Position numbers and translations under genes: made by a program
The notes under the pieces: model-generated
Told to the model about the DNA's origin: nothing
What the model saw: only the letters and a program-made list of their open reading frames with translations
Database searches by the model: none
Shown here: piece after piece, positions 17,502 through 56,603 of the stretch
How positions within the stretch are numbered: position 1 is the stretch's first letter
Layout of the letters: every line of letters begins with the position of its first letter
Source of the DNA: Nanoarchaeota archaeon SCGC AAA011-D5
GTDB lineage: Archaea; Nanobdellota; Nanobdellia; Pacearchaeales; GW2011-AR1
NCBI GenBank assembly: GCA_000405225.1
Contig: ASMP01000001.1
Coordinates: 892-64,891, forward strand
Reading direction: 5' to 3'
DNA: 64,000 nucleotides

Positions 17502-17523
17502 TCTGCAAAAAAAGAAAAAGTTA

Positions 17524-17685
17524 TTTCTTCAGGGCCTTGTCAATCTCGGGCCTGTTAAAACCTACGATTATCTTTTCGTTTATCTCTATCTCTGGCACGT
17601 CCATCTGCCCGCTCTTCTCTATCATCTCTTCGGCGTCCTTCGCGTTCTTCTCCACGTTTATCTCCTCGTACTTCACATTGTTTTT
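17524..17685 (-). pseudogene. remnant of a glutaredoxin/NrdH-like gene (C-terminal 54 codons only)
   Basis: Between TAG (17686-17688) and TAA (17521-17523): KNNVKYEEINVEKNAKDAEEMIEKSGQMDVPEIEINEKIIVGFNRPEIDKALKK, which matches the C-terminal two-thirds of small glutaredoxins. The CxxC-bearing N-terminus is missing, and two in-frame stops lie immediately upstream. Confidence 0.6.
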
Positions 17686-17751
17686 CTATTGACATTCCTA
17701 GATACTGCGACGCTTCTTTTGGTATATCAATTGCAGGATCTACTAAAGAAT

Positions 17752-18654
17752 CTACAGGGTATATAATTTATTAAGAAGTCCTGATCTTGAGGGGTGTCTC
17801 AATTTTCTTAGGGCTTTTGCTTCTATCTGTTTAATTCGTTCTCTTGTACATTCGAAGCTAGTACCAACTTCTGCTAGTGTATGCTGACTGCCGTCGTCAA
17901 GACCAAACCTCATTCTAACAACTTTTTCCTCTCTTGGTGCAAGAGTCTCTAAAACTTTTTTAATTTGATCTGAAAATTCTGCGTTGAATCTTTCTTTGCG
18001 CTGCGTTAAATATTCTCGAACTCCATTATCCTCCAATAGTAAGAAACCGTCTGCTAACCTTTTGTAGACGTCTAGTTCAACTCTACGAAAGGCTCTATTA
18101 AATGCTTTTTCCGCAGTTCCTACTGCTCGCCTTGTTCCCATTCTATCGTAAGTTTCTCTCAGACTTTTATACAGCATGGGCAATATAATATCTTCAGTTT
18201 CTGGTAATCTCGTTTTCTCCCCAAATACTGCTCTGAGAAGCCTTTCTGCAGGTGATAGTTCATCTGGTTGACTGTAACTGAATATGCGACCAAGTCCCGT
18301 GTCAGTATAAATGAGCTTGTTTATCCTAGGTTTGAAAATATCTTCATCTACAGCTTCGTAGACTGTTTTTTCCCCTTCTTTGTCAATCAAATTAACATTT
18401 GGAAGACCTTCTGCTTGTCCTAGAGTTGCTAAATATAAATGTATGGCATTTCTATACCTATTACTCAATTTTAATGCTTCTCTGTAAAATTCTACAAGAG
18501 GATCTTTCCATTCTGGAGAACGCTTCCTAACAATTAGTAGTGCCGTCGGCTCTTTAACACCCCACTTCTTCTGAATGTATTTAGAACTAACATGACTCAA
18601 GTAGCTTAGTGCAACATCTCTCTCTTGTACTTCTGTCAGTCTGCGTTTCGACAT
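17752..18654 (-). CDS. protein with C-terminal bacterial sigma-70 region 4 (RpoD-like) domain and unrecognised N-terminal ~230 aa
   Basis: C-terminus [54 protein letters not shown] is nearly collinear with RpoD regions 4.1-4.2. Start chosen at ATG 18654 (MSKRR), preceded by GGAGTGAT 4 nt upstream; the ORF track extends to 18687. Confidence 0.8.
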
Positions 18655-18686
18655 TATTATCACTCCATATTCAAAGAAAAGAAGCA

Positions 18687-18694
18687 TTTATAAA
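18687..18694 (-). promoter_or_regulatory. TATA-box-like TTTATAAA upstream of the sigma-4 domain gene
   Basis: Palindromic TTTATAAA 33-40 nt upstream of ATG 18654, followed by the Shine-Dalgarno-like GGAGTGAT (18659-18666). Confidence 0.35.
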
Positions 18695-18889
18695 GCTTAC
18701 CATTTTAGCTACTATAGAGTTACAATCAGAGTTTAACTATAGTGTAGAAATATCCTTCTTTTATCTTAATTATTTCAGAGAAAACAGCATCCTAGTTCGG
18801 CTCTCTTTTTCCAAGCTCTTCTAAATATATTCCTGCTATACTTCTGCATTTCAGGCAACCTAAGAATTAGCTAAATATAAAAAAGAAAA

Positions 18890-18961
18890 AGCCTGTGAGG
18901 GGAGTTGAACCCCTGACCTACGCATTACAAGTGCGCCGCTCTACCACTGAGCTACACAGGC
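18890..18961 (-). tRNA. tRNA-Thr (anticodon UGU)
   Basis: Cloverleaf: acceptor GCCTGTG/CACAGGC, D-arm GCTC-AGTGGTA-GAGC, anticodon stem GCGCA/TGCGT with loop CTTGTAA, T-arm AGGGG-TTCAACT-CCCCT. Confidence 0.9.
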
Positions 18962-21957: not shown

Positions 21958-23823
21958 ATGCTTGAAAAGAGGGGCAAAAGAGGGACTCTGCCCATGGTGA
22001 GACAGATTAGAGGTCAGCTGAGCATTTTTATAATAATCGCGATTGTTGTCGTTGCCCTGATTTTTGGATACTTTTTTTTGAGGGGAACTATTTCTGTGCG
22101 CGGAATACCTGGAAGCATACAACCTGCATATACTGGTTTTTTGTCATGTCTGGAAGAGGACACGAACTCAGGAATATCTGTCTTGGAGAGCCAGGGGGGA
22201 TATATAGATCTCCCTGAGTTTGAGCCAGGCTCTGAATATATGCCTTTTTCATCACAACTGAATTTTGCAGGAAGTCCTGTTCCTTATTGGTATTATGTCT
22301 CGGGAAACAATATCCAGAAGGAGCAAGTTCCCACAAAAGGCGACATGGAAGACCAGCTTGAAAGTTTTATAGAAGAAAGGCTGAGAGACTGTAACCTGAG
22401 AAGTTACCATGATGAAGGGTTTGCAATCAGCATGCCAGATAAACCAAAGGCAGATGTGAACATAAAAGATGGTGAAGTGGAAGTGAATCTGAAACTGGAT
22501 CTTACAATAGAAAAAGAAAATGATACGGCATTGATAAGAAACCACAAAATATCGCAGCCGTCAAAACTCGGAAAGCTTTACGATTCTGCAAAAACAGTCT
22601 ATGACGAAGAACAGAAAAATCTTTTTTTAGAAAGATATGCTATTGACATCTTAAGGCTGTATGCTCCTGTAGATGGAGTAGAGATTACATGCGCTCCCCT
22701 TGTGTGGGATGCCGAAGAGGTTTTTGATGGCTTACAGGAAGCTATAGAAATAAATACTGCCGCACTAAAAAACAAAGGAAGCCGGGAAGATTATTTTGCA
22801 TTGAATTTCCCGGTAGATGAAGAAGTTCGTTTTTTGAATTCTAAAGACTGGCCAAACGGCTTTGAGATTTCTCCCGCAGACGGCAGGATTTTAATTTCCA
22901 GCCCTGTTGGAAATCAGCCAGGAATAGGATCTCTTGGATTTTGCTATGTTCCTTACCATTTCGTTTATAACATGAGATATCCTGTAATGATTCAAGCTTA
23001 TGATGGAGAGGAGATTTTCCAGTTCCCTGTTGCAGTTGTCATACAGGGAAACAATCCGCGGGAGTTCCTTAACGCTAGTGCTTCTGAAGATATTGTTCCA
23101 GAGCTCTGCAAATATAAAAATACAGAAGTCCAGATAAACACCTATGACACTTCTTTAAGGCCAGTGGATGCACAAATTTCCTACGAATGTTTCGGAAATA
23201 AGTGTGATATTGGAACCACAGAATCTGGAAAAATGACAGAGAATTTCCCACAGTGTGTAAATGGGTTTGTTTCTGCAAAAGCCCCTGGCTTCAAGGATAC
23301 CAGGTACTTATTTTCGACAGTGCAGCCGGGTTCTTTAGACATAATTCTTGACAGAGTCTATGAAACAGATATTGAACTGCTGCTTGATGGAAAGCCTTAC
23401 ACAGGAGAGGCTGTGATTACCTTTTCATCGGGTTATGCAACAGAAACCATCATTTATCCTAACCAGAAAACAGTAAAACTCGGAGAAGGGCAACATGAAA
23501 TTCAGGTCCAGATATTTAGAAATTCTTCAATAACAATAGGAGCAACAACGAAAGAACAGTGTATTGAAGTCCCAAGAGGAATTTTAGGAGTTTTCGGTTT
23601 GACAGAGGAAAGGTGTTTTGATATTCAGATACCGGGACAGGTGATTTCAAATGCGCTTTCAGGCGGCGGAAAGCAATCTCTTTATGTTCTCGAGTCTGAA
23701 CTGATAAAGGGAAATGCGCTTGAGATAAATGCGAGAAGCCTTCCTATTCCCAAGACGATAGAACAGGTCCAGGATAACTATCAATTGTTTGAGCAAAATC
23801 CGCTGGAGGCTGAGTTTAAGTAA
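21958..23823 (+). CDS. membrane-anchored extracellular protein with class III (prepilin-like) signal-like N-terminus; function unknown
   Basis: 621-aa ORF; the internal Met at 21994 gives MVRQIRGQ-LSIFIIIAIVVVALIFGYFF; the rest is soluble and Cys-containing with no family recognised; 5 nt upstream of the giant gene. Confidence 0.6.
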   Translation: MLEKRGKRGTLPMVRQIRGQLSIFIIIAIVVVALIFGYFFLRGTISVRGIPGSIQPAYTGFLSCLEEDTNSGISVLESQGGYIDLPEFEPGSEYMPFSSQLNFAGSPVPYWYYVSGNNIQKEQVPTKGDMEDQLESFIEERLRDCNLRSYHDEGFAISMPDKPKADVNIKDGEVEVNLKLDLTIEKENDTALIRNHKISQPSKLGKLYDSAKTVYDEEQKNLFLERYAIDILRLYAPVDGVEITCAPLVWDAEEVFDGLQEAIEINTAALKNKGSREDYFALNFPVDEEVRFLNSKDWPNGFEISPADGRILISSPVGNQPGIGSLGFCYVPYHFVYNMRYPVMIQAYDGEEIFQFPVAVVIQGNNPREFLNASASEDIVPELCKYKNTEVQINTYDTSLRPVDAQISYECFGNKCDIGTTESGKMTENFPQCVNGFVSAKAPGFKDTRYLFSTVQPGSLDIILDRVYETDIELLLDGKPYTGEAVITFSSGYATETIIYPNQKTVKLGEGQHEIQVQIFRNSSITIGATTKEQCIEVPRGILGVFGLTEERCFDIQIPGQVISNALSGGGKQSLYVLESELIKGNALEINARSLPIPKTIEQVQDNYQLFEQNPLEAEFK

Positions 23824-23828
23824 ATAAA

Positions 23829-26800
23829 ATGCCAGAAGAAAAAAATATTTTGACGGGAAAAAAGTATATGTTAGTAAGAAAACGCGGTAAGTATCTTAAA
23901 AGAAATTCAGTTAAAAGCTTAATTAACATAAGATTTATCCTTTTAATATCTATTTTTTTGGCTTTAACATTATTTTTTGTTTCATCTTTACCCATAACAA
24001 CTGCAGCATCTTCTTATGTAAGGAGTTCTCCTGCATATACTTTTGGGCATCAAACAGCCCCTTTCATAGGAGGACAGCAGTTCCCTTTATTTGACAGGAG
24101 CCAATGCCAGGCAGGCCAGGATTTCATTCTTCAGGTTGATCCTTTAGGATGCACACCATCTGTTATCAGAAGCGACTTGCTGGAAGATCAGGAAGTCGTT
24201 GTTTTCTGTCCAATATCTGCAACACAGCTGAACCCTTTGATTAAAATCAAAGACATAGACTATATGATTATAACTCCAAAAGATCTTCCCCGCGAGGTTT
24301 TGACAGTTGGCTATTATCCTGCAAGGGCTGCACTTGGAAAATGGGATCCTGACATTAAAACCCCAATTCTTGGAAATATAGGATATGCAACAATTGTTCT
24401 TAGAAGACAGCCTAACGAGTCTGCTATGCCTGATTTTGTCCAAGGAAATCTGACGGCAAAGCTGGTTTATGACATAGACAATGCATTTGGAACAGGAAGA
24501 GCTGTCTATTACCTAAGGCAAATGAGTGACGAAGAATGGAACAGGGGTTATACTGCTTATGGCTTCTGGGATGGAAGAGGATATTTGCGATTAGAAGGAG
24601 CAGACAACACAGGAGCGACGATAGGAGTTTATTCTGACAGAGACCAGACAGGAAACGCAAGGCTTGGAGAAAAAACAAAAATAGCCAACCTTGATCTGGA
24701 AAAAGGAAAAACATCGAGAGAAGTATTTCTTCCAGGATTCAATTACTGCATGGGTGGAATTGAAGTAAAACTAGAAGATTTTGAAAATCCGGACACAAGG
24801 GCAAGGCTAAGAGTTGATTCTGAGGTTATTGAAATGAAAACAGGAGAGAAATTCCTGGAAAACAAGTGCCTTGTAAAAAGCATATCAAAGCAAGGAATAA
24901 ATCAGAAAGTCGAGGTCTCTTGCCAGGAAGACGAAAGAAGAAACCCTTTCCTCTTAAGAATAAGCCCTAAAGTCAGCCTTTCTATAAATGGGGAAGCTAA
25001 AGAATACGGTGCTGGAGATTTATTGTATGATGACAAAGATAATTCCTATTACTTGGGATTTGTGGGAAGCAGCGGACAAACAAACTCTCTGGGAGAAGTA
25101 TATATAAGAATTATTTCAATACCAAAATCCAGAGGAGGAATAAGAACGAGCTTAAGCGAAAGCGATCTTTCTTTTGTTGCCAGTTATGACAAAAAAGTTT
25201 CTGGAAAAAACACAAAAGGAAGCGTTATTGAGGAAACTAAAGAATTTTTTGAAGGCATTGTGGCACAATTATCGCTTGTAGAAAATAAATTCTTCCGGGG
25301 AGCAGACCTAAAGACATTGACATATTCTGATTCGGAAAAACAGATTTTTGGAAAAACCCTTTCCATAAAAGGATATTCCGGAGCACCAGATACAGACATT
25401 TCCCAGATGCCTAAAGAAGTCAGGGAAAATTATGAAAATGCGATGAAAGATTATCTAGCAATAAAAGAGAGCTTCTCGGGAGACAGGTATCCTCCAAATG
25501 ATATAAGGACTCTTGGGGAGCAGGCTCTTACAGAAACTATAAGGCTTGCAAAAAGTCTTGAGCAGAGAAGTACGATATTACAACTTTGCAGAGAATTTTC
25601 TGAAACTTACGGTTCAGCTCCGCCAGAAATATCAACGATATGCGATAATGGATATCTTTTATCAAACACACAGACTTCTGAAAGAAGCGTAGTTATCAAC
25701 GGAAAAACACATATACTTGCCTTTGAAGGAGTAAGGGAGCCAAGCTTTGATGAATTTGGTCTTGAGATTATTGTGGCTTCTTCTGAAGGGCCAGGGGAAT
25801 ATGACCTTTCAAAAGGCGAGAGGGTTTATATCAACAGCACATCTAATGAGTATATACAACTGATAAATCTGGAGGAAGATTCTGCAATTCTTGTTACAGG
25901 CCTTTTAGGAAGAAATATAAGAACATCACAAAGGCTGAAAATTGGAACCGAAGAAACATTTGAGAGCAGGTACAGCTTTAGAATAAAGGAAATACATCTT
26001 CAAAAAGTTGCAAAGGTTTCCCTAAATCCAAAAATTGATTATGCCAGGACAAATGCGACAATCAACTTCAAAATTGGAATAGAAAAAAGAGCAATACAAT
26101 TAAGCCCTGAAAAAACAAAGGAAAGAATACAAACCCTGAACAAAACCATTGAAAAATGGACAAAAATAAATGATGGTTTGGGAAAAGTCGTCAAGGCCGG
26201 AAAGGCAGCATGTCTTGCGACAGCAGGAGCTTTAACAATAAAGAACTTCTTCTCGAATCTTGGAGGAAAAGGAATTGCAAGGCAAACAGTGATGAAAGCT
26301 CCAGGCACAGGATGGTATGACAAGTGCCAGAAAGATGTAAAGGATGTCAAATACGAATCTGTGGAAGCCTGTCTTTTGGCAAATTCTGATTCAATAGAAT
26401 CCTCTGTCAATTCATATGCCGATGCAATGAAAAAACAGAATGATGAAATAAAAAAACTTGAAGAAGGAATTTCCGATACAAGATTCCTTGGAGAAAAGGT
26501 TGTTAATACAGATGCGCTTGCTCAAAAACTCATGAATGACCCTGCTTTTATATCAGATATAAATTCCTGCAAAAATGATATTCAGATAGTTGTTGGTGGA
26601 AAAACTATAAGCGCTGTTGATGTTTATCCCATTAATCCAAACACAACAACGATCAGCCAGGCAAGAGCTCTGCAGTTAAATTGCAGGCTTCTTTCTTCAA
26701 GTGATACTGATGTACAAGCAATAGCAAAAAGTAATGTTGAAAAAACCTTTGGAGAGATTTATTCAAACTCAAGAACAGAGGCAACAAGGCTGACCTTTAA

Positions 26801-29800
26801 CTCACAATATGGAATCTCCCCAATAGTTGGCTCTACAAAAAAGCTTAAAGAATTTCCTCTTACAGATGTAAAAACCTTTGGCCAGGTAAAAAGCAAATTC
26901 AGTGGTGCAACAATTTCTGATGATACATATGTAACTACTTTTATCGACCAGACAGATGGCAAACAATATCTTATCACATTGACAAATGAATATGTTGTAA
27001 GCCAGACTTATCTCATAGGATCTGGCGGTGTTCTTAGTGTTGCAAATTCAAACAATGTAAACCATCTGGGAATAGGATTTAAAAAATACGATTCAGCAAC
27101 TTACAGCAATACATACATAAGTCCCAAAGTTAGATATTATGAGACAGATCCTTATCAAGGATTCCCTTCTGTGGTTCCTTTTGATACAAAGAATGGATGG
27201 TATGCTGCAGTAAAATCCAATGTGCCTGCGCTTGGAGGACTGAAAGCTTACGATGATTCTGGCAGAGTTTCCAGTTTCTATGTCTGCAATGTCGGACCAA
27301 ATGGCAGAGAGGAAAATATTGGAGGAGATGATATCTGCAGAGGATTCTATCCTGGAGCACAGCAGCCTCCAGATTTTCCCGGCTTAACAGAGCAGGAATC
27401 AAGAACTAAGATGGAGCAGGCTCAGAGGGCAATACAGCAAGCCCAGAACGAATACAAGGATGGAGTTAAAGAAGTAACAATAACTGCCGGTGGTCAAAGT
27501 CAAAGAATTAAAGTTGGAGAGCCTGCGGCAAATATTCCAGGAATACAATGCGAAGACTTTATGTCTCCTTCTGATTGCAATATTATGTTCAATGTTTGCG
27601 ATCCTTTCGTCTGTCCTTCTAGCAGATGTGATCTTGGAGGAGCATATCCTGTCAAAGATGTCATACAATCGGGAATAGCTGGAAGCATTGCACTCTGCCT
27701 TCCAAACTGGCCGGAAATTAAAGTTCCTATCTGTGTTTCAGGAGTGCATGCAGGACTTGAAGGATACAAAAGTGTTCTTAGCTCTTACCAACAGTGTTTG
27801 CAAACCAGCCTAGATACAGGACAGACAGTTGGAATCTGCGATGAACTGAACAGCATTTACATGTGTGACTTTTTCTGGAGACAAGGACTTCCTTTGATAA
27901 AATATGCGATACCTAAGGTAGTGGGAAGCGTTCTCGGACAAAACGTTAGAGGAGGAGGAGAATATCTTGGAGTTGCAGATGCCGCGTCTAATGCACAGAA
28001 GTCAATAGATTATTTCAGCCAGTATTATGCCGCGAATTCTTTTGCAGCTTTCAAGGCAAGATCTTTGGAAAGTGTGGGAACAGATATCTGCAGGAACTGG
28101 GTTTCACTCACAGGGCCAAAGGGAAATCTTTTTGACGCTTTAATATCTCCGGATTCACCGCCGCAGTTTTATGGAAGATTTGAGGAAATTCCTTACACTA
28201 CTGCAACAAATCCACCTGCGTCTCAGTACAAAGTGTTCTATCATATTTATGCCGGAAAAGATCTGCCTGCTTATTATCAAGTATATCTTCGAGGAACAGG
28301 CGGTTCCTTTTACCAGGACACTGCATTCAGGCGCCCAGTCGCATCAGGATTCATAAAAACAGGAGATTTCAAATCAGAAACTATAGATTTCAATGCTCCG
28401 TCGGGATACAAAGAGCTGTGCATAGTCGTAAACAACCAAGAACAGTGCGGCTTTAAACAGGTAACAACTGATTTCGGAGTGAATTATCTCTCTGAAAAAT
28501 ATGTTCAACAGCAGGCTTCCCAGAAAGACATAAAGTCAGAAGCAGAATGCGTTTCCGGAAATCCTAGCGCTTTCAGTTTCCTGAATCCCAATCTGCAGGC
28601 AGGTGCAGAAGAGGCATTGAATCCAGCAATATACAATAGAGGAATAACAAGAGTTTGCTCTACAGAGAATCCCGGAAAAACCAGTGACCCTCTGATGAAT
28701 ACGAAAAATCAGAGATGGAAAGATGTTGGAAACTGCGGGAGTGCAAACTTGAAGTGCTGGCTTGATACGGACAGTGTTAATAAGGTTATCAAAAATGCAA
28801 ATATACTGAACGAGACACTTGGAGTAATTGGAGATAGAGAAAAGCAAATCATAGATGCGTTGACGAAAGAAGGAAAGTACCTTGATAATTTTGATTCTTT
28901 CCAGAAAGAACTGGAAGGTCTTCAAGATTCAGAAATTATTTCGAAGATAAATGAAAACATCGGCAGGGTTTACAGAAACAACCAGAAAGGTTACCTTTAT
29001 TTTAAAAGAGGAAATGCCTATGGAAATCAGGCTCGTTTAACATACAGAATTCTCCTAGACACACAGAACTTACCTATAACACAAAGAGATTCAGAACCTT
29101 TAAATCCTATAGAAGAGCCAACAGAAACTCCTGAACAACCAAAAACAGGAGAAGAACCAACAGAAGCAGCAAGATGTGAAAAAGAATGTGGAGTTGTTTG
29201 TAGTAAGACAGAATGTGAATCTTTAGGATGTACTTTTGTTCCAGATCCAGTATTTAACAAAATATTTCCTCTTATTTTTAATAACTGTATACCAAAAGAA
29301 CAACCAACAGAACCAACGACAGAAGCAATAACACAATTCAAGAAGACCTTGGGAGAAAAGATAATCAAACTTGCGAAAGAGAAAGAACAGGAAAGAACAG
29401 ATCCCGACTACTCTACAGTACAAGCAGACACTGGAGCAAAATCTTTTGAATGCCTGGCTTTGCAGGTTGCTTTGATAGAAAGTAGCATTAGGCAATGTAA
29501 GAAAACACCCGCAAATGGAAACAACCCTCTTTACTGTGAGGGAGATAGCAGTGAAACAATCTCTGGTGATGCCTTTAAAACTGGTGGAGATTCTGGAAGC
29601 AGAGGAATCATGCAGATAAATACAGCATTTAAGAGGAAAGACAATGGTCAAAGTGTAGGACATTGTGGGAGTTACGATCTTTCATCCAACCGTGAAGAAT
29701 GCAGGACACAACTTTCATATTTTGAGACTAATGTGAATACTGGACTTAATCTTTTAATTGAAGGATATGATAAAGATGAAAAAAGCTTTGATTGTAATGG

Positions 29801-30548
29801 AAAGAAATATTCAGGATGGGCTAGAGCCTTAAGAAATTATAATGGTTGGGGATGTACAGGGAATACCAATTATGTAGAGAATGTTATATCTGCAAGAGAT
29901 GATGTTGCAAGACTTTTTCCAGAAGTTTGTGGGGAAACCAAGGAGGTATCTGTATCTGTCTCTCCCGTTACTTATTCAAAGGCAGAACTTATGGGGAGAA
30001 GTTCTACTATAAAAGGATTAACATCTGAAACTATTAAGGCCTTTTTTTCTATGAAAGCCGCAGCTGAAACAGATGGATTTATTCTAAATGCAGTATCTGG
30101 ATATAGAACTTTCAACAGGCAATTAGATATATGGAATGATAAATTTGCATCGTTTAGTGGCACAGATCAAGAAAAGGCAACAAAAACGGCTGAGTTTTCT
30201 GCTGTTCCAGGAATGTCCCGCCACCATTGGGGAACAGAAATAGACATAAATTCAGTTGATCCTTCTTACTGGCAGAATAATGTGGCCTTATATGAATGGC
30301 TTGTTTCAAATGCTCCAACTTATGGATTTTGCCAGTCCTATGATGAAGATAGAGGTGTAGTCAAAACAGAAAAATGGCATTGGAGTTACAAACCAATATC
30401 AAAACAGCTAACACAGCAATATTCCGATACAATAATTGCACAGGACATAACCGGTTTAGGTATTTCTGGAGAAACTACAATAATCTCTAACTTTGACTTC
30501 TACAAAAGAGGTTCTATCAGCGACATAAACCCCGATTGTTTATCTTAA
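23829..30548 (+). CDS. giant (2,239 aa) membrane-anchored surface protein with C-terminal lytic transglycosylase (SLT/GH23) and VanY/M15B peptidase domains
   Basis: Uninterrupted 6.7-kb ORF with N-terminal anchor IRFILLISIFLALTLFFVSS. SLT motifs: ALQVALIESS, RGIMQIN, ALRNYNGWG. M15B motifs: SGYRTFNRQ, SRHHWGTEIDIN, EKWHWSY. Confidence 0.85.
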   Translation: MPEEKNILTGKKYMLVRKRGKYLKRNSVKSLINIRFILLISIFLALTLFFVSSLPITTAASSYVRSSPAYTFGHQTAPFIGGQQFPLFDRSQCQAGQDFILQVDPLGCTPSVIRSDLLEDQEVVVFCPISATQLNPLIKIKDIDYMIITPKDLPREVLTVGYYPARAALGKWDPDIKTPILGNIGYATIVLRRQPNESAMPDFVQGNLTAKLVYDIDNAFGTGRAVYYLRQMSDEEWNRGYTAYGFWDGRGYLRLEGADNTGATIGVYSDRDQTGNARLGEKTKIANLDLEKGKTSREVFLPGFNYCMGGIEVKLEDFENPDTRARLRVDSEVIEMKTGEKFLENKCLVKSISKQGINQKVEVSCQEDERRNPFLLRISPKVSLSINGEAKEYGAGDLLYDDKDNSYYLGFVGSSGQTNSLGEVYIRIISIPKSRGGIRTSLSESDLSFVASYDKKVSGKNTKGSVIEETKEFFEGIVAQLSLVENKFFRGADLKTLTYSDSEKQIFGKTLSIKGYSGAPDTDISQMPKEVRENYENAMKDYLAIKESFSGDRYPPNDIRTLGEQALTETIRLAKSLEQRSTILQLCREFSETYGSAPPEISTICDNGYLLSNTQTSERSVVINGKTHILAFEGVREPSFDEFGLEIIVASSEGPGEYDLSKGERVYINSTSNEYIQLINLEEDSAILVTGLLGRNIRTSQRLKIGTEETFESRYSFRIKEIHLQKVAKVSLNPKIDYARTNATINFKIGIEKRAIQLSPEKTKERIQTLNKTIEKWTKINDGLGKVVKAGKAACLATAGALTIKNFFSNLGGKGIARQTVMKAPGTGWYDKCQKDVKDVKYESVEACLLANSDSIESSVNSYADAMKKQNDEIKKLEEGISDTRFLGEKVVNTDALAQKLMNDPAFISDINSCKNDIQIVVGGKTISAVDVYPINPNTTTISQARALQLNCRLLSSSDTDVQAIAKSNVEKTFGEIYSNSRTEATRLTFNSQYGISPIVGSTKKLKEFPLTDVKTFGQVKSKFSGATISDDTYVTTFIDQTDGKQYLITLTNEYVVSQTYLIGSGGVLSVANSNNVNHLGIGFKKYDSATYSNTYISPKVRYYETDPYQGFPSVVPFDTKNGWYAAVKSNVPALGGLKAYDDSGRVSSFYVCNVGPNGREENIGGDDICRGFYPGAQQPPDFPGLTEQESRTKMEQAQRAIQQAQNEYKDGVKEVTITAGGQSQRIKVGEPAANIPGIQCEDFMSPSDCNIMFNVCDPFVCPSSRCDLGGAYPVKDVIQSGIAGSIALCLPNWPEIKVPICVSGVHAGLEGYKSVLSSYQQCLQTSLDTGQTVGICDELNSIYMCDFFWRQGLPLIKYAIPKVVGSVLGQNVRGGGEYLGVADAASNAQKSIDYFSQYYAANSFAAFKARSLESVGTDICRNWVSLTGPKGNLFDALISPDSPPQFYGRFEEIPYTTATNPPASQYKVFYHIYAGKDLPAYYQVYLRGTGGSFYQDTAFRRPVASGFIKTGDFKSETIDFNAPSGYKELCIVVNNQEQCGFKQVTTDFGVNYLSEKYVQQQASQKDIKSEAECVSGNPSAFSFLNPNLQAGAEEALNPAIYNRGITRVCSTENPGKTSDPLMNTKNQRWKDVGNCGSANLKCWLDTDSVNKVIKNANILNETLGVIGDREKQIIDALTKEGKYLDNFDSFQKELEGLQDSEIISKINENIGRVYRNNQKGYLYFKRGNAYGNQARLTYRILLDTQNLPITQRDSEPLNPIEEPTETPEQPKTGEEPTEAARCEKECGVVCSKTECESLGCTFVPDPVFNKIFPLIFNNCIPKEQPTEPTTEAITQFKKTLGEKIIKLAKEKEQERTDPDYSTVQADTGAKSFECLALQVALIESSIRQCKKTPANGNNPLYCEGDSSETISGDAFKTGGDSGSRGIMQINTAFKRKDNGQSVGHCGSYDLSSNREECRTQLSYFETNVNTGLNLLIEGYDKDEKSFDCNGKKYSGWARALRNYNGWGCTGNTNYVENVISARDDVARLFPEVCGETKEVSVSVSPVTYSKAELMGRSSTIKGLTSETIKAFFSMKAAAETDGFILNAVSGYRTFNRQLDIWNDKFASFSGTDQEKATKTAEFSAVPGMSRHHWGTEIDINSVDPSYWQNNVALYEWLVSNAPTYGFCQSYDEDRGVVKTEKWHWSYKPISKQLTQQYSDTIIAQDITGLGISGETTIISNFDFYKRGSISDINPDCLS

Positions 30549-31193: not shown

Positions 31194-32123
31194 TTATTTC
31201 TCCTTTGCTCTTGCCTCGCTTTCTTTTTGCTTGATTTTTTCTTCAAGGTCAAGCCTTTCTATAAGTTCTTTATAACGGTTTCTTATCGTTACTTCTGTTA
31301 TTCCTGCTATGTCTGCAACCTCTCTCTGAGTTTTTTTCTCATCGTTTATAAGGGCAGCGACATAAAGAGCAGCTGCGGCTATGCCCGCTGGACCGCGCCC
31401 TGAAGTAAGTTCAACTTCCTCTGCCCTTTTCAGGACTTTGAGGGCGTCATTCTGGGTTTTTGGCGAGAGTTTCAGAACAGAAGAAAATCTGGAGACGTAG
31501 TCTTTTGGCGAGCTTTGAGTGACCTTTATTCCGAGTTTTCTTATTATGAATCTGTAAGTTCTTCCTATTTCTTTTCTTTCAACATCAGAAGCCGTAGCCA
31601 TTTCATCAAGAGTTCTTGGTATATTATAACTTCTGCAGGCAGCATATAAACAGGCAGCTATCACAGATTCCATAGAACGGCCACGAACCAAGCCTCTTTG
31701 GAGAACATAATTGTAAATCCGAGCCGCATCGTCTCTTATGACATTTGGCAGATTGAGATAAGATGCGATAACCCTTAATTCAGCCATTGCAAGCCTGAGA
31801 TTTCTTTCTATACTCGTTGAAACACGCTCCTGCCATTTCTTAAGTCTCAAGAATTTCCTGGTTTGCTTTGGTTCCAACCTGTAGATATCAGATATCTCTC
31901 CTACGTTCGTTGTGAGTCCTTTATCAAACTTCTGAATGCTGGTTGGCGCACCTCCCCTGCCTTTTTTTTCATTTTTGTCAAATTTCCCTTGCATGTCCAC
32001 TCCGGTGTCCACCATTTTTTCCTCAATCACCAAGCCGCAGTCATTACAGATGATTTCCCCTAAATGCGGATCATAAGTGAGATTAATACCCCCGCATTCC
32101 GGACATTTTTTTATGAAAGCCAT
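31194..32123 (-). CDS. tfb: transcription initiation factor TFB (TFIIB homologue)
   Basis: N-terminal zinc ribbon CPECGG...CNDCGLV, B-finger/linker, two cyclin-fold repeats (RVIASYLNLP..., ALKVLKRAEE...GRGPAGIAAAALY), C-terminal HTH ITEVTIRNRYKEL. Confidence 0.95.
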   Translation of the reverse strand: MAFIKKCPECGGINLTYDPHLGEIICNDCGLVIEEKMVDTGVDMQGKFDKNEKKGRGGAPTSIQKFDKGLTTNVGEISDIYRLEPKQTRKFLRLKKWQERVSTSIERNLRLAMAELRVIASYLNLPNVIRDDAARIYNYVLQRGLVRGRSMESVIAACLYAACRSYNIPRTLDEMATASDVERKEIGRTYRFIIRKLGIKVTQSSPKDYVSRFSSVLKLSPKTQNDALKVLKRAEEVELTSGRGPAGIAAAALYVAALINDEKKTQREVADIAGITEVTIRNRYKELIERLDLEEKIKQKESEARAKEK

Positions 32124-55713: not shown

Positions 55714-55892
55714 TTTTTCTATATATATTTTGAGATATATATAAAATACAATACAGGTTTAAAAACTTATTTACCATAAAGACTAATTAACACACCAGAG
55801 AATTACCATATTTACTGAAACCGAGGCAAACCCCACATCACTTGACAAAAGTTGACCGAAAGGTATTTATTTGAACCTAATTTAATGATAAA

Positions 55893-56603
55893 ATGTTAAA
55901 AAATTTGCTAAAAGAAGTAATCTCCTTAGTCGCCGGAAAACAGGCTGAGGACATAATAAATATTCTTGATACACAAAAATATATCAATGAGTTTGTAATA
56001 GCTAAAAAACTGAACCTTACTATAAACCAGGCAAGAAATATTCTGTATAAAATTTCTGACCATGGCCTGGTTTCTTCTATAAGAAAAAAAGATAAAAGAA
56101 AAGGATGGTACACTTATTTCTGGAAGATAGAAATTCTGAAATCTCTGGAGTTTCTTAGGGAAAATTTGCTCAAGAAAATAGAAAACACAGAACACCAGAT
56201 GAAGAGCAGAGAGACAAAAAGATTCTATGTCTGTCCGAGATGCCATATAGAGCTCAGCGAAGAAAATGCCCTGATTAACAACTTTACCTGTAACGAATGC
56301 GGCTCGATATTGGTTCTTAAAGACAACACTAAATTAATAAAAGATTTAAGAAAAAATAAAGAAAGACTTGAAAAAGATTTAGGGATAGTCAAGGAGGAAA
56401 TACTGAAGGAAAAGGAGAAGGAGGAAAAAAAGAGGATAAAAGAAATAAAAAAGGAAAAAAGAAAAACAAAAAGGAAATCACAGATTTCCAAGCTTTCTAA
56501 ATGGAAAATAAAAAAAGGACAAAGTTCAAATCTAAAAAAATTAAAAAACACAAAACCAAAAAAAACAAAAGGAAGAAAAAAGACCTCCAAAAAAAGAAGA
56601 TAA
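55893..56603 (+). CDS. tfe: transcription factor E (TFE alpha) with Lys-rich C-terminal tail
   Basis: Winged helix (EFVIAKKLNLTINQARNILYKISDHGLVSSIRKKDKRKGWYTYFWKI), zinc ribbon CPRCH...CNECGS, then a K-rich tail. Confidence 0.8.
   Translation: MLKNLLKEVISLVAGKQAEDIINILDTQKYINEFVIAKKLNLTINQARNILYKISDHGLVSSIRKKDKRKGWYTYFWKIEILKSLEFLRENLLKKIENTEHQMKSRETKRFYVCPRCHIELSEENALINNFTCNECGSILVLKDNTKLIKDLRKNKERLEKDLGIVKEEILKEKEKEEKKRIKEIKKEKRKTKRKSQISKLSKWKIKKGQSSNLKKLKNTKPKKTKGRKKTSKKRR

Follow-up and report, generated by a model that had tools for sequence, protein, structure and literature searches.

The 64,000-nucleotide stretch of contig ASMP01000001.1 from Nanoarchaeota archaeon SCGC AAA011-D5 that was analyzed here (the window, at its full length) carries on its minus strand a gene whose product consists of a helical N-terminal domain followed by region 4 of a bacterial-type sigma-70 factor (sigma-4). 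The product is not a canonical sigma factor, because it contains no domain for core binding or for melting of the -10 element, and its gene is not a singleton but one of a sizeable, unnamed family that is so far found only in archaea. We propose that the gene probably encodes a cytoplasmic, sequence-specific DNA-binding regulator in this DPANN archaeon. The features of the locus on which this proposal is built are as follows.

17752-18654, minus strand: coding sequence, 300 amino acids plus stop, an N-terminal family domain and then sigma-70 region 4, the short form of the family (list of open reading frames (ORFs), homologue alignment, and ratio of nonsynonymous to synonymous substitution rates, dN/dS)

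17767-17973, minus strand: sigma-70 region 4 (4.1-4.2) of the group-1 type, residues 228-296, including the RHPSRS tail (Pfam, NCBIfam, phmmer, Foldseek)

17797-17847, minus strand: recognition helix of region 4.2, residues 270-286 (alignment to E. coli sigma-70 546-608)

17980-18654, minus strand: family-defining N-terminal helical domain and helical linker, residues 1-225 (HMMER search, conservation, AlphaFold2 (AF2) model)

18508-18633, minus strand: possible three-helix helix-turn-helix (HTH), residues 8-49, weakly sigma-4-like (AF2 helices 8-19, 24-31, and 35-49)

18659-18666, minus strand: GGAGTGAT, Shine-Dalgarno-like, 4 nt 5' of ATG 18654 (read from the sequence)

18687-18694, minus strand: TTTATAAA, archaeal-type TATA box, 33-40 nt 5' of ATG 18654 (read from the sequence)

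In bacteria, sigma-70 region 4 is the HTH that recognizes the -35 element. The original prediction, made from the DNA letters alone, had read the last ~70 residues of the protein as this region, and that reading holds. Pfam PF04545 (Sigma70_r4) matches residues 234-287 (E 1.4e-15, 56.9 bits, gathering cutoff 24.1), the top NCBIfam matches are to RpoD models, at their C-terminal ends (over residues 222-295), and phmmer against PDB sequences returns region 4 of S. aureus SigA at E 4e-22, with 45 of 67 positions identical (~67%, a hand count of the alignment). In the same PDB sequences, residues 546-608 of E. coli sigma-70 align with residues 233-295 of the window protein. The AF2 model of the full-length protein is all helical (pLDDT 92.5, pTM 0.83), and its region 4 superposes on sigma-4/beta-flap chimeras with a root-mean-square deviation (rmsd) of 0.7-1.3 Å and 54-56% identity, showing the same four-helix fold; region 4 is thus present by Pfam, by PDB, and by fold (rmsd ~1 Å). 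Its recognition helix keeps the equivalents of E. coli R584, E585, R586, and Q589, with R588 replaced by K, and the protein terminates nine residues past RHPSRS. The numbers given for sigma-4 and alpha-CTD contact residues refer to manually entered E. coli sigma-70 and alpha reference sequences. It should be noted that the window sigma-4 (residues 232-292) is 63-74% identical to that of bacterial RpoD, 67% identical to that of its nearest distinct relative (P0003), and at most 61% identical to that of the remaining family, so that it lies nearer to RpoD than to these, and that the mean pairwise identity of sigma-4 in the family is ~32% in what is a gappy alignment. This closeness to RpoD could reflect either slow evolution of the clade or replacement of the module.

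Region 2 of sigma factors binds the beta-prime clamp helices of the core enzyme and recognizes and melts the -10 element. Neither region 2 (PF04542) nor region 1.2 (PF00140) nor region 3 (PF04539) is present in the window protein, for which the Pfam and NCBIfam models of these regions give no match even at E≤10. Likewise, Sigma70_r2, Sigma70_r3, and Sigma70_r1_2 match none of 112 family members (Pfam, E≤0.01). When the N-terminal alignment of the family (residues 1-225) was compared by hhalign with a 45-sequence RpoD alignment, the probability of a relationship was 0.26%, and the family sigma-4 alignment, run as a positive control against the same RpoD profile, gave 99.8%. The N-terminus cut into three pieces brought up no sigma-2 or sigma-3 against this profile either. 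A PDB profile search with the N-terminus returned only an annexin (E 0.03), and the AF2 model of the N-terminal part alone, which is again all helical (pLDDT 88.5), found nothing in the PDB better than E 1.0 by Foldseek. The full-length model does match whole SigA chains at E ~1e-4 but with a TM score of ~0.25 and an rmsd >20 Å, and these matches arise because of sigma-4 together with generic helices. A sigma-2 or sigma-3 concealed in the N-terminus is ruled out by Pfam, NCBIfam, hhalign, the PDB profile search, and Foldseek on the N-only model. Hence the original prediction, which had recognized no signature of region 1.2 or 2 by eye and had concluded that a protein with region 4 only could not work as a sigma factor, is borne out, and sensitive profiles (112 members, RpoD profile) reveal no regions 2-3.

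What the N-terminus contains instead is a domain with no match in Pfam, NCBIfam, PHROGs, PADLOC, PDB sequences, or PDB folds. It is defined by the conserved motifs ER-x-VAL-x-YL(C/S), W-x-DPLVEFYR, RNA-x-HLYL, and LL-x-x-(I/V)FG, and by the near-invariant columns C20, W49, D51, L53, Y57, R58, N69, H72, and L75, every one of which is held by the window protein except C20, which is S. A comparison by hhalign of residues 1-62 of the family alignment with the family's own sigma-4 gave a probability of 27.7% (E 6.5e-4, 51 columns), suggesting that residues 8-49 may be a second, degenerate sigma-4-like HTH; this is suggestive only.

The extent of the family became apparent when residues 1-225 alone were used in an exhaustive HMMER search of 1.84 billion cluster representatives (50% identity clusters), which gave 110 clusters at E≤1e-3, 69 at E≤1e-10, and eight at E≤1e-30. 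When the whole protein was used in a word-indexed search, bacterial RpoD dominated the output, and the only proteins returned with the same N-terminus were three, namely the 311-residue form of the window protein itself and two relatives. Regions 2 and 3 are present in all bacterial matches to the whole protein, and region 1.2 is present as well in those that are full length. Cluster look-ups gave no name for the window protein, no record of the exact 311-residue form exists on the contigs searched, and the sole source name recovered for any member of the family is 'hypothetical protein'. Within the 112 members scanned with Pfam, 90 contain Sigma70_r4 and 56 contain RNA_pol_A_CTD (PF03118), the C-terminal domain of the bacterial alpha subunit (alpha-CTD); GerE matches two and HTH_10 one. 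It is through sigma region 4 and the alpha-CTD that the bacterial holoenzyme reads upstream promoter DNA and receives activators, and to our knowledge neither is expected in archaea. In ten long members scanned singly the alpha-CTD scores 54-98 bits in proteins with one or two copies and 210.6 bits in P0224, which has four, at a cutoff of 23.8. The usual long form has ~350-410 residues and comprises the N-domain, a helical linker, sigma-4, a linker of ~60 residues, and the alpha-CTD. Among the variants (P0224, P0228, P0217, P0207, and P0133) are proteins with alpha-CTD repeats, two to four in number, of which three show no detectable sigma-4, and one protein with two sigma-4-like domains. The window protein, which has no match to PF03118 in Pfam, is of the short form with sigma-4 and without alpha-CTD, like P0003, P0123, P0135, and P0231, and tblastn with a long-form member found no alpha-CTD anywhere in the 64-kb window. 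The family gene is broken into two consecutive ORFs, the N-domain and then the rest, in one locus (L012, 5989-7158) and in L040, its twin in a metagenome; this could be a frameshift, a sequencing error, or a pseudogene.

The residues by which these modules contact DNA are widely conserved. In family sigma-4 domains R584 is kept in 40 of 86, E585 in 53 of 87, R586 in 68 of 87, R588 in 62 of 87, and Q589 in 67 of 87, and in the alpha-CTD R265 is kept in 51 of 55, N268 in 40 of 55, G296 in 51 of 54, and S299 in 39 of 54. The residues through which sigma-4 and the alpha-CTD contact each other are also mostly retained (sigma R603 in 50 of 67, alpha D259 as D/E in 39 of 53, and alpha E261 as D/E in 36 of 53).

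The mechanical ORF of the window gene is longer than the one given above, beginning at ATG 18687 and giving 311 residues. We regard ATG 18654 as the supported start because all homologues begin at the equivalent position, with the pattern M-S/A-x-R-K/R-L, and because ATG 18687 falls within the TATA box. The promoter signals named in the original prediction, TTTATAAA (18694-18687) and GGAGTGAT 4 nt before ATG 18654, were recovered when the sequence was re-read. A box of the TTTATAAA type begins ~29-36 nt 5' of the start codon in most of the family loci shown (40 nt in the window gene), and a spacing of ~30 nt from the start is typical of archaeal promoters whose transcripts have a short leader or none. 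The element GGAGTGAT is a candidate ribosome-binding site, and the homologous locus L017 has TTGAGTGAT, although the position of the TATA box means that GGAGTGAT may coincide with the transcript start or precede it. The first 20 residues of the protein are charged and without a hydrophobic leader (the translation was inspected by eye, with no predictor).

The strong similarity of the last 70 residues to RpoD is the sole point in favor of an artefact, be it a misbinned contig with a complete bacterial sigma factor, a chimeric join, or a decaying rpoD fragment, and we consider this hardly credible. Archaeal genes flank the locus on both sides: SRP54, FtsY, an archaeal-type phosphoglycerate mutase, Gins51, eS1 (S3Ae), eL42 (L44e), a RIO-type kinase, TFB, and TFE-alpha lie around it, several aminoacyl-tRNA synthetases and deoxyhypusine synthase are also encoded in the window, and no bacterial RNA polymerase subunit was found among the ORFs of the window that were scanned. 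TFB (31194-32123) and TFE-alpha (55893-56603), which had already been called in the original prediction, are confirmed by Pfam, and this TFB shares a 90%-identity cluster with proteins from metagenome-assembled genomes (MAGs) of Pacearchaeota and Nanoarchaeota. The composition is ordinary, with GC flat along the window (0.385 in the gene, 0.374 in the window) and the tetranucleotide distance of the gene ranking at the 79th percentile among windows of equal size. L017, assembled independently from another sample (run SRR12113383), encodes a protein 84% identical to the window protein, and its upstream flank is almost the same. The frame is intact between the two, and dN/dS (0.29 for the whole gene, 0.25 for the N-domain) indicates purifying selection, as measured on this one homologue pair. 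We reject misbinning, chimera, and pseudogene because the flanks are archaeal, the composition is ordinary, L017 reproduces the gene, and dN/dS is 0.29, and further arguments against an artefact are the conservation of the N-domain across at least 110 clusters and the exclusively archaeal origin of the matches in genomes. The chimeric join or misbinned contig that the original prediction had been wary of is therefore contradicted by composition, archaeal flanks, and L017.

The divergence between the window gene and its homologue (L017, 214-1116) is patchy, the differences being gathered in codons ~10-50 and ~70-170, with dS of 0.08 in sigma-4 and 0.44 in the N-domain next to a nearly identical upstream flank. 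This pattern suggests allelic recombination or a fast-evolving surface of the N-domain.

The family is distributed among related archaea, a point that the original prediction had wished to see checked. A scan with a strict pattern of one genome per GTDB species gave nine loci, all in archaeal MAGs (Woesearchaeota, Nanoarchaeia, unclassified 'archaeon', and one labelled Methanosarcinales), and a scan of metagenomes gave 24 further family loci. Elsewhere the family genes stand in housekeeping contexts (L35Ae, RIO1, a NucS-type Endo_dU, phosphopantothenate synthetase, STT3, tRNA synthetases, 2-oxoacid dehydrogenase). Hence relatives exist in archaeal genomes but their synteny, which was also to be checked, is not conserved: an all-against-all comparison of neighbors at 13 loci gave no recurrent gene partner, and none was found in further contexts. 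Viral or mobile origin is rejected, since there is no member on IMG/VR viral contigs and no PHROG for the N-domain.

The lack of a conserved operon partner would suit a protein that binds DNA for a purpose other than transcription, for example nucleoid organization, silencing of foreign A/T-rich DNA, replication or segregation, or defense, with the modules serving only as generic DNA anchors. The number of DNA-binding modules, which varies (as many as four alpha-CTDs; no sigma-4 in some members), and the resemblance of the sigma-4 part to the C-terminus of MzaA, from the MZA anti-phage system, point the same way. However, the MzaA match is confined to the sigma-4 segment, no defense genes were called beside the loci examined, and the conserved residues are those making base-specific contacts to the -35 element and not backbone contacts alone. 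We therefore regard a non-transcriptional role as rather unlikely.

We instead favor a mechanism in which a constant helical N-domain of ~200 residues would bear a set of DNA-binding modules that varies between members and derives from the RNA polymerase holoenzyme of bacteria: region 4 alone in the window gene, region 4 with an alpha-CTD in the commonest long form, and two to four alpha-CTDs or two sigma-4-like domains in others. The TBP/TFB/TFE machinery would transcribe the gene from a TATA promoter of the ordinary archaeal kind. The region-4 HTH would bind a hexamer-sized DNA element, because it keeps the residues that contact the -35 element, and in the long forms the alpha domain would add a neighboring contact in an A/T-rich minor groove. 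The N-domain could deliver the output, through oligomerization, through contact with the archaeal initiation machinery (TBP, TFB, RNA polymerase), or through ligand sensing, in the last case presumably via the D51/Y57/R58/N69/H72 cluster. We infer a regulator with its output in the constant domain because the N-domain is constant while the DNA-binding modules vary. The favored reading thus draws on the TATA boxes upstream of most loci shown, the conserved DNA-contact residues, the purifying selection, and the variable modules on a constant N-domain. It retains the suggestion of the original prediction that a DNA-binding module had been domesticated as an archaeal regulator, as our preferred interpretation and not as a demonstration.

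Several observations weigh against this interpretation. The search for a binding site identified no site or regulon of the window protein, either by the TTGACA count or by promoter motif searches. TTGACA, the bacterial-type -35 hexamer, is not enriched in the window (48 observed, 44 expected), and its only intergenic occurrence is a single copy of TTGACA-N4-TTGACC just 5' of the TFE promoter. The motif GT[AT]ACTA, found upstream of the TATA box, occurs in just one third of the family promoters, was noticed post hoc, and is unlike TTGACA. Moreover, the invariant polar residues D51, N69, H72, Y57, and R58 could equally mark an enzymatic or ligand site. The TFE copy defines one candidate element.

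55841-55857, plus strand: cTTGACAaaagTTGACC, two TTGAC copies one helical turn apart, directly 5' of the TATA-like GTATTTATTT of TFE-alpha (ATG 55893)

This pair is a candidate sigma-4 site, as a single case that is not significant. The motif GT[AT]ACTA is present in 9 of 27 non-redundant family promoters and in 11 of 172 control promoters, and in a pre-specified test on held-out loci, fetched after the motif had been defined, it was found in 5 of 12 (Fisher p 0.0014). As GT[AT]ACTA(C/T) it lies in either orientation ~15-30 nt 5' of the TATA box (for example in L015, L005/L021, L035, L001, L039, L023, and L037). The promoter of the window gene (18712-18742) has near matches only (GTAACTCTATAGTAGC), plus a direct repeat of CTATAGT (x2), and in an unbiased k-mer screen of the family promoters the best p was ~1e-3 uncorrected, which is not significant once corrected. 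The motif hints at shared regulation or autoregulation and is a lead only.

The chance-level count of TTGACA bears equally on a second role in transcription, that of a hybrid initiation adaptor. Its N-domain would dock on archaeal RNA polymerase or TFB/TBP, and sigma-4 (with the alpha-CTD where present) would read bacterial-type -35/UP elements or contact bacterial-type activators, so that bacteria-derived genes could be transcribed or regulated in the archaeon. Such an adaptor would explain why the appended modules are both the upstream-promoter-recognition and the activator-contact modules of the bacterial holoenzyme, and why the residues of the sigma-4/alpha-CTD contact are mostly retained. 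There are also many bacterial genes in DPANN genomes, and genes annotated as sigma-70 in Woesearchaeota have been flagged as unexplained in one study (PMC8204110). On the other hand, the protein has no sigma-2 and hence no means of recognizing or melting a -10 element, the family genes examined have TATA-type boxes upstream and not bacterial-type promoters, no synteny with bacteria-derived genes was seen at the 13 loci, and docking of the N-domain on archaeal machinery is a supposition. We judge the adaptor unlikely. In its boldest form, the family would bridge both prokaryotic transcription systems, the N-domain plugging into the archaeal pre-initiation complex and the captured sigma-4/alpha-CTD reading bacterial-style upstream elements or receiving activators. 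We hold this to be a long shot, but if it were true, genome-reduced archaea could express and regulate bacterial genes without rewriting their promoters.

The original prediction had also raised the possibility of a decoy or effector aimed at a bacterial partner, in which sigma-4 would titrate anti-sigma factors or activators or would engage the beta-flap of bacterial RNA polymerase, and had linked it to murein hydrolases at 29440-30400. One such domain is indeed encoded there.

~30018-30395, plus strand: VanY D-Ala-D-Ala carboxypeptidase domain, residues 2064-2189 of the 2239-residue ORF 23829-30548 (Pfam, its sole match in the ORF)

Nothing was detected at 29440-30017, and the hydrolase assignment accordingly stands for the VanY part only. 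The similarity of the window sigma-4 to that of bacterial primary sigma factors (63-74%) and the presence of a giant protein with a peptidoglycan peptidase domain in the same window speak for a decoy. Against it, the N-terminus is charged and has no hydrophobic leader (as judged by eye), none of the 13 compared loci shows linkage to the VanY gene or to genes for secretion, the gene sits among housekeeping genes, the family is not found on IMG/VR viral contigs, and fusion to additional DNA-binding modules suits DNA binding better than mimicry. The decoy, together with its murein hydrolase link, is therefore abandoned here as very improbable, and the proposal of a DNA-binding regulator is retained. 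The VanY ORF is preceded by a 621-residue ORF (21958-23823, plus strand) with no Pfam match, a homologue of which lies ~0.9 kb from the family gene in L009; this may be a coincidence.

The window gene has the following neighbor on its upstream side.

18890-18961, minus strand: tRNA-Thr(TGT), on the same strand as the gene and 236 nt upstream of it

The junction between the tRNA and the gene is kept in L017. The tRNA was considered as an integration site and rejected, as just one gene lies between it and the next gene and no integrase or suggestive repeat was seen. Immediately 3' of the gene, at 17521-17751 on the minus strand, is a glutaredoxin-like remnant in which Pfam Glutaredoxin matches profile positions 25-60 only, while the in-frame part further upstream has stop codons and no CxxC motif; it is probably a pseudogene. 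Elsewhere in the window, a 1820-residue ORF (36890-42352, minus strand) encodes a giant protein with a bacterial Ig-like (Big_3_3) domain. Its C-terminus (36890-37489, minus strand) consists of a lysine-rich stretch followed by two tandem sigma-4-like HTH repeats of the extracytoplasmic function (ECF) type, REIGKELGRNERTIWTAYKKA and SEIAELLERDQRNIWTAYSRA, and Pfam Sigma70_r4_2 matches there in two stretches (36.4 bits, cutoff 25.7). This ORF represents a second and different use of a sigma-4-type HTH in the window, perhaps in a membrane-tethered regulator.

That the two bacterial modules are fused to one another and to a conserved archaeal domain in more than 100 sequence clusters, mostly behind TATA boxes and, for the one homologue pair measured, under purifying selection, shows that DPANN archaea captured bacterial promoter-recognition hardware and reused it. 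The protein offers a separable DNA-binding module, the specificity of which is predictable, together with a new domain for which a partner can be sought, and it carries a warning for annotation, since a Sigma70_r4 match in a DPANN genome does not equal a sigma factor. The original prediction had overlooked the family of at least 110 clusters, the alpha-CTD in half of its members, and the prior mention of sigma-70-annotated genes in DPANN archaea in PMC8204110.

Compared with known systems, the protein most resembles region 4 of the group-1 sigma factors RpoD and SigA, with ~67% identity to S. aureus SigA over 67 residues, the same fold, the recognition-helix residues, and the RHPSRS tail. Unlike these factors it has no regions 1.1, 1.2, 2, or 3, its region 4 is preceded by an unrelated helical domain of 225 residues, and its gene lies behind a TATA promoter in an archaeon encoding TFB and TFE. 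The bacterial alpha-CTD (PF03118) has its counterpart after sigma-4 in 56 of the 112 family members, with the '265 determinant' conserved, but in the family no alpha N-terminal domain is attached to it, and some members have two to four copies. Phage proteins consisting of sigma-4 only (BFVD A0A6J5S254, 'Sigma70_r4 domain containing protein') likewise have region 4 without region 2, and the window protein aligns with this one at a target-normalized TM of 0.54 (rmsd 1.1 Å, 45% identity, 77 columns), but they are short (about 95-136 residues) and viral, and none has the N-domain. MzaA carries a C-terminal sigma-4 that aligns with residues 219-297 of the window protein. The NCBIfam model of MzaA (~700 positions) reaches only 101.9 bits (cutoff 800) and matches at profile positions 636-713 only, and the PADLOC profile matches at positions 596-664 of 683 only. 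The other ~600 positions show no similarity, and MZA partner genes are absent from the vicinity. Membership in MZA or another defense system is rejected, as only the sigma-4 part matches MzaA. LuxR/GerE proteins, ECF-type Sigma70_r4_2 proteins, and archaeal HTH_10 regulators would be analogous in using a sigma-4-type HTH as a DNA-binding output outside a sigma factor; the window domain, unlike those of LuxR/GerE and HTH_10, scores as group-1 region 4 (PF04545), has no match to GerE (PF00196) in Pfam, and is joined to a new partner domain.

A further comparison is with the genes classified as sigma-70 (fam00359) that were reported to be prevalent in Woesearchaeota, where no anti-sigma factors were found and the mechanism was called unclear (Castelle et al., 2021, PMC8204110). 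The lineages are the same, and two of the genome loci found here come from the groundwater and Rifle MAG series, as judged from isolate names; the sigma-4-only architecture, the N-domain, and the fusion to the alpha-CTD are not described in the text of that article. The group fam00359 is likely the present family, and the one-line puzzle of 'sigma-70 in Woesearchaeota' would become a defined architecture that is open to testing. We found no description of the combination of sigma-4 and alpha-CTD in archaea in the literature searched, which did not cover subscription journals. What is new here is an architecture whose modules are known but whose occurrence in this domain of life is unexpected, and which is broadly distributed within DPANN.

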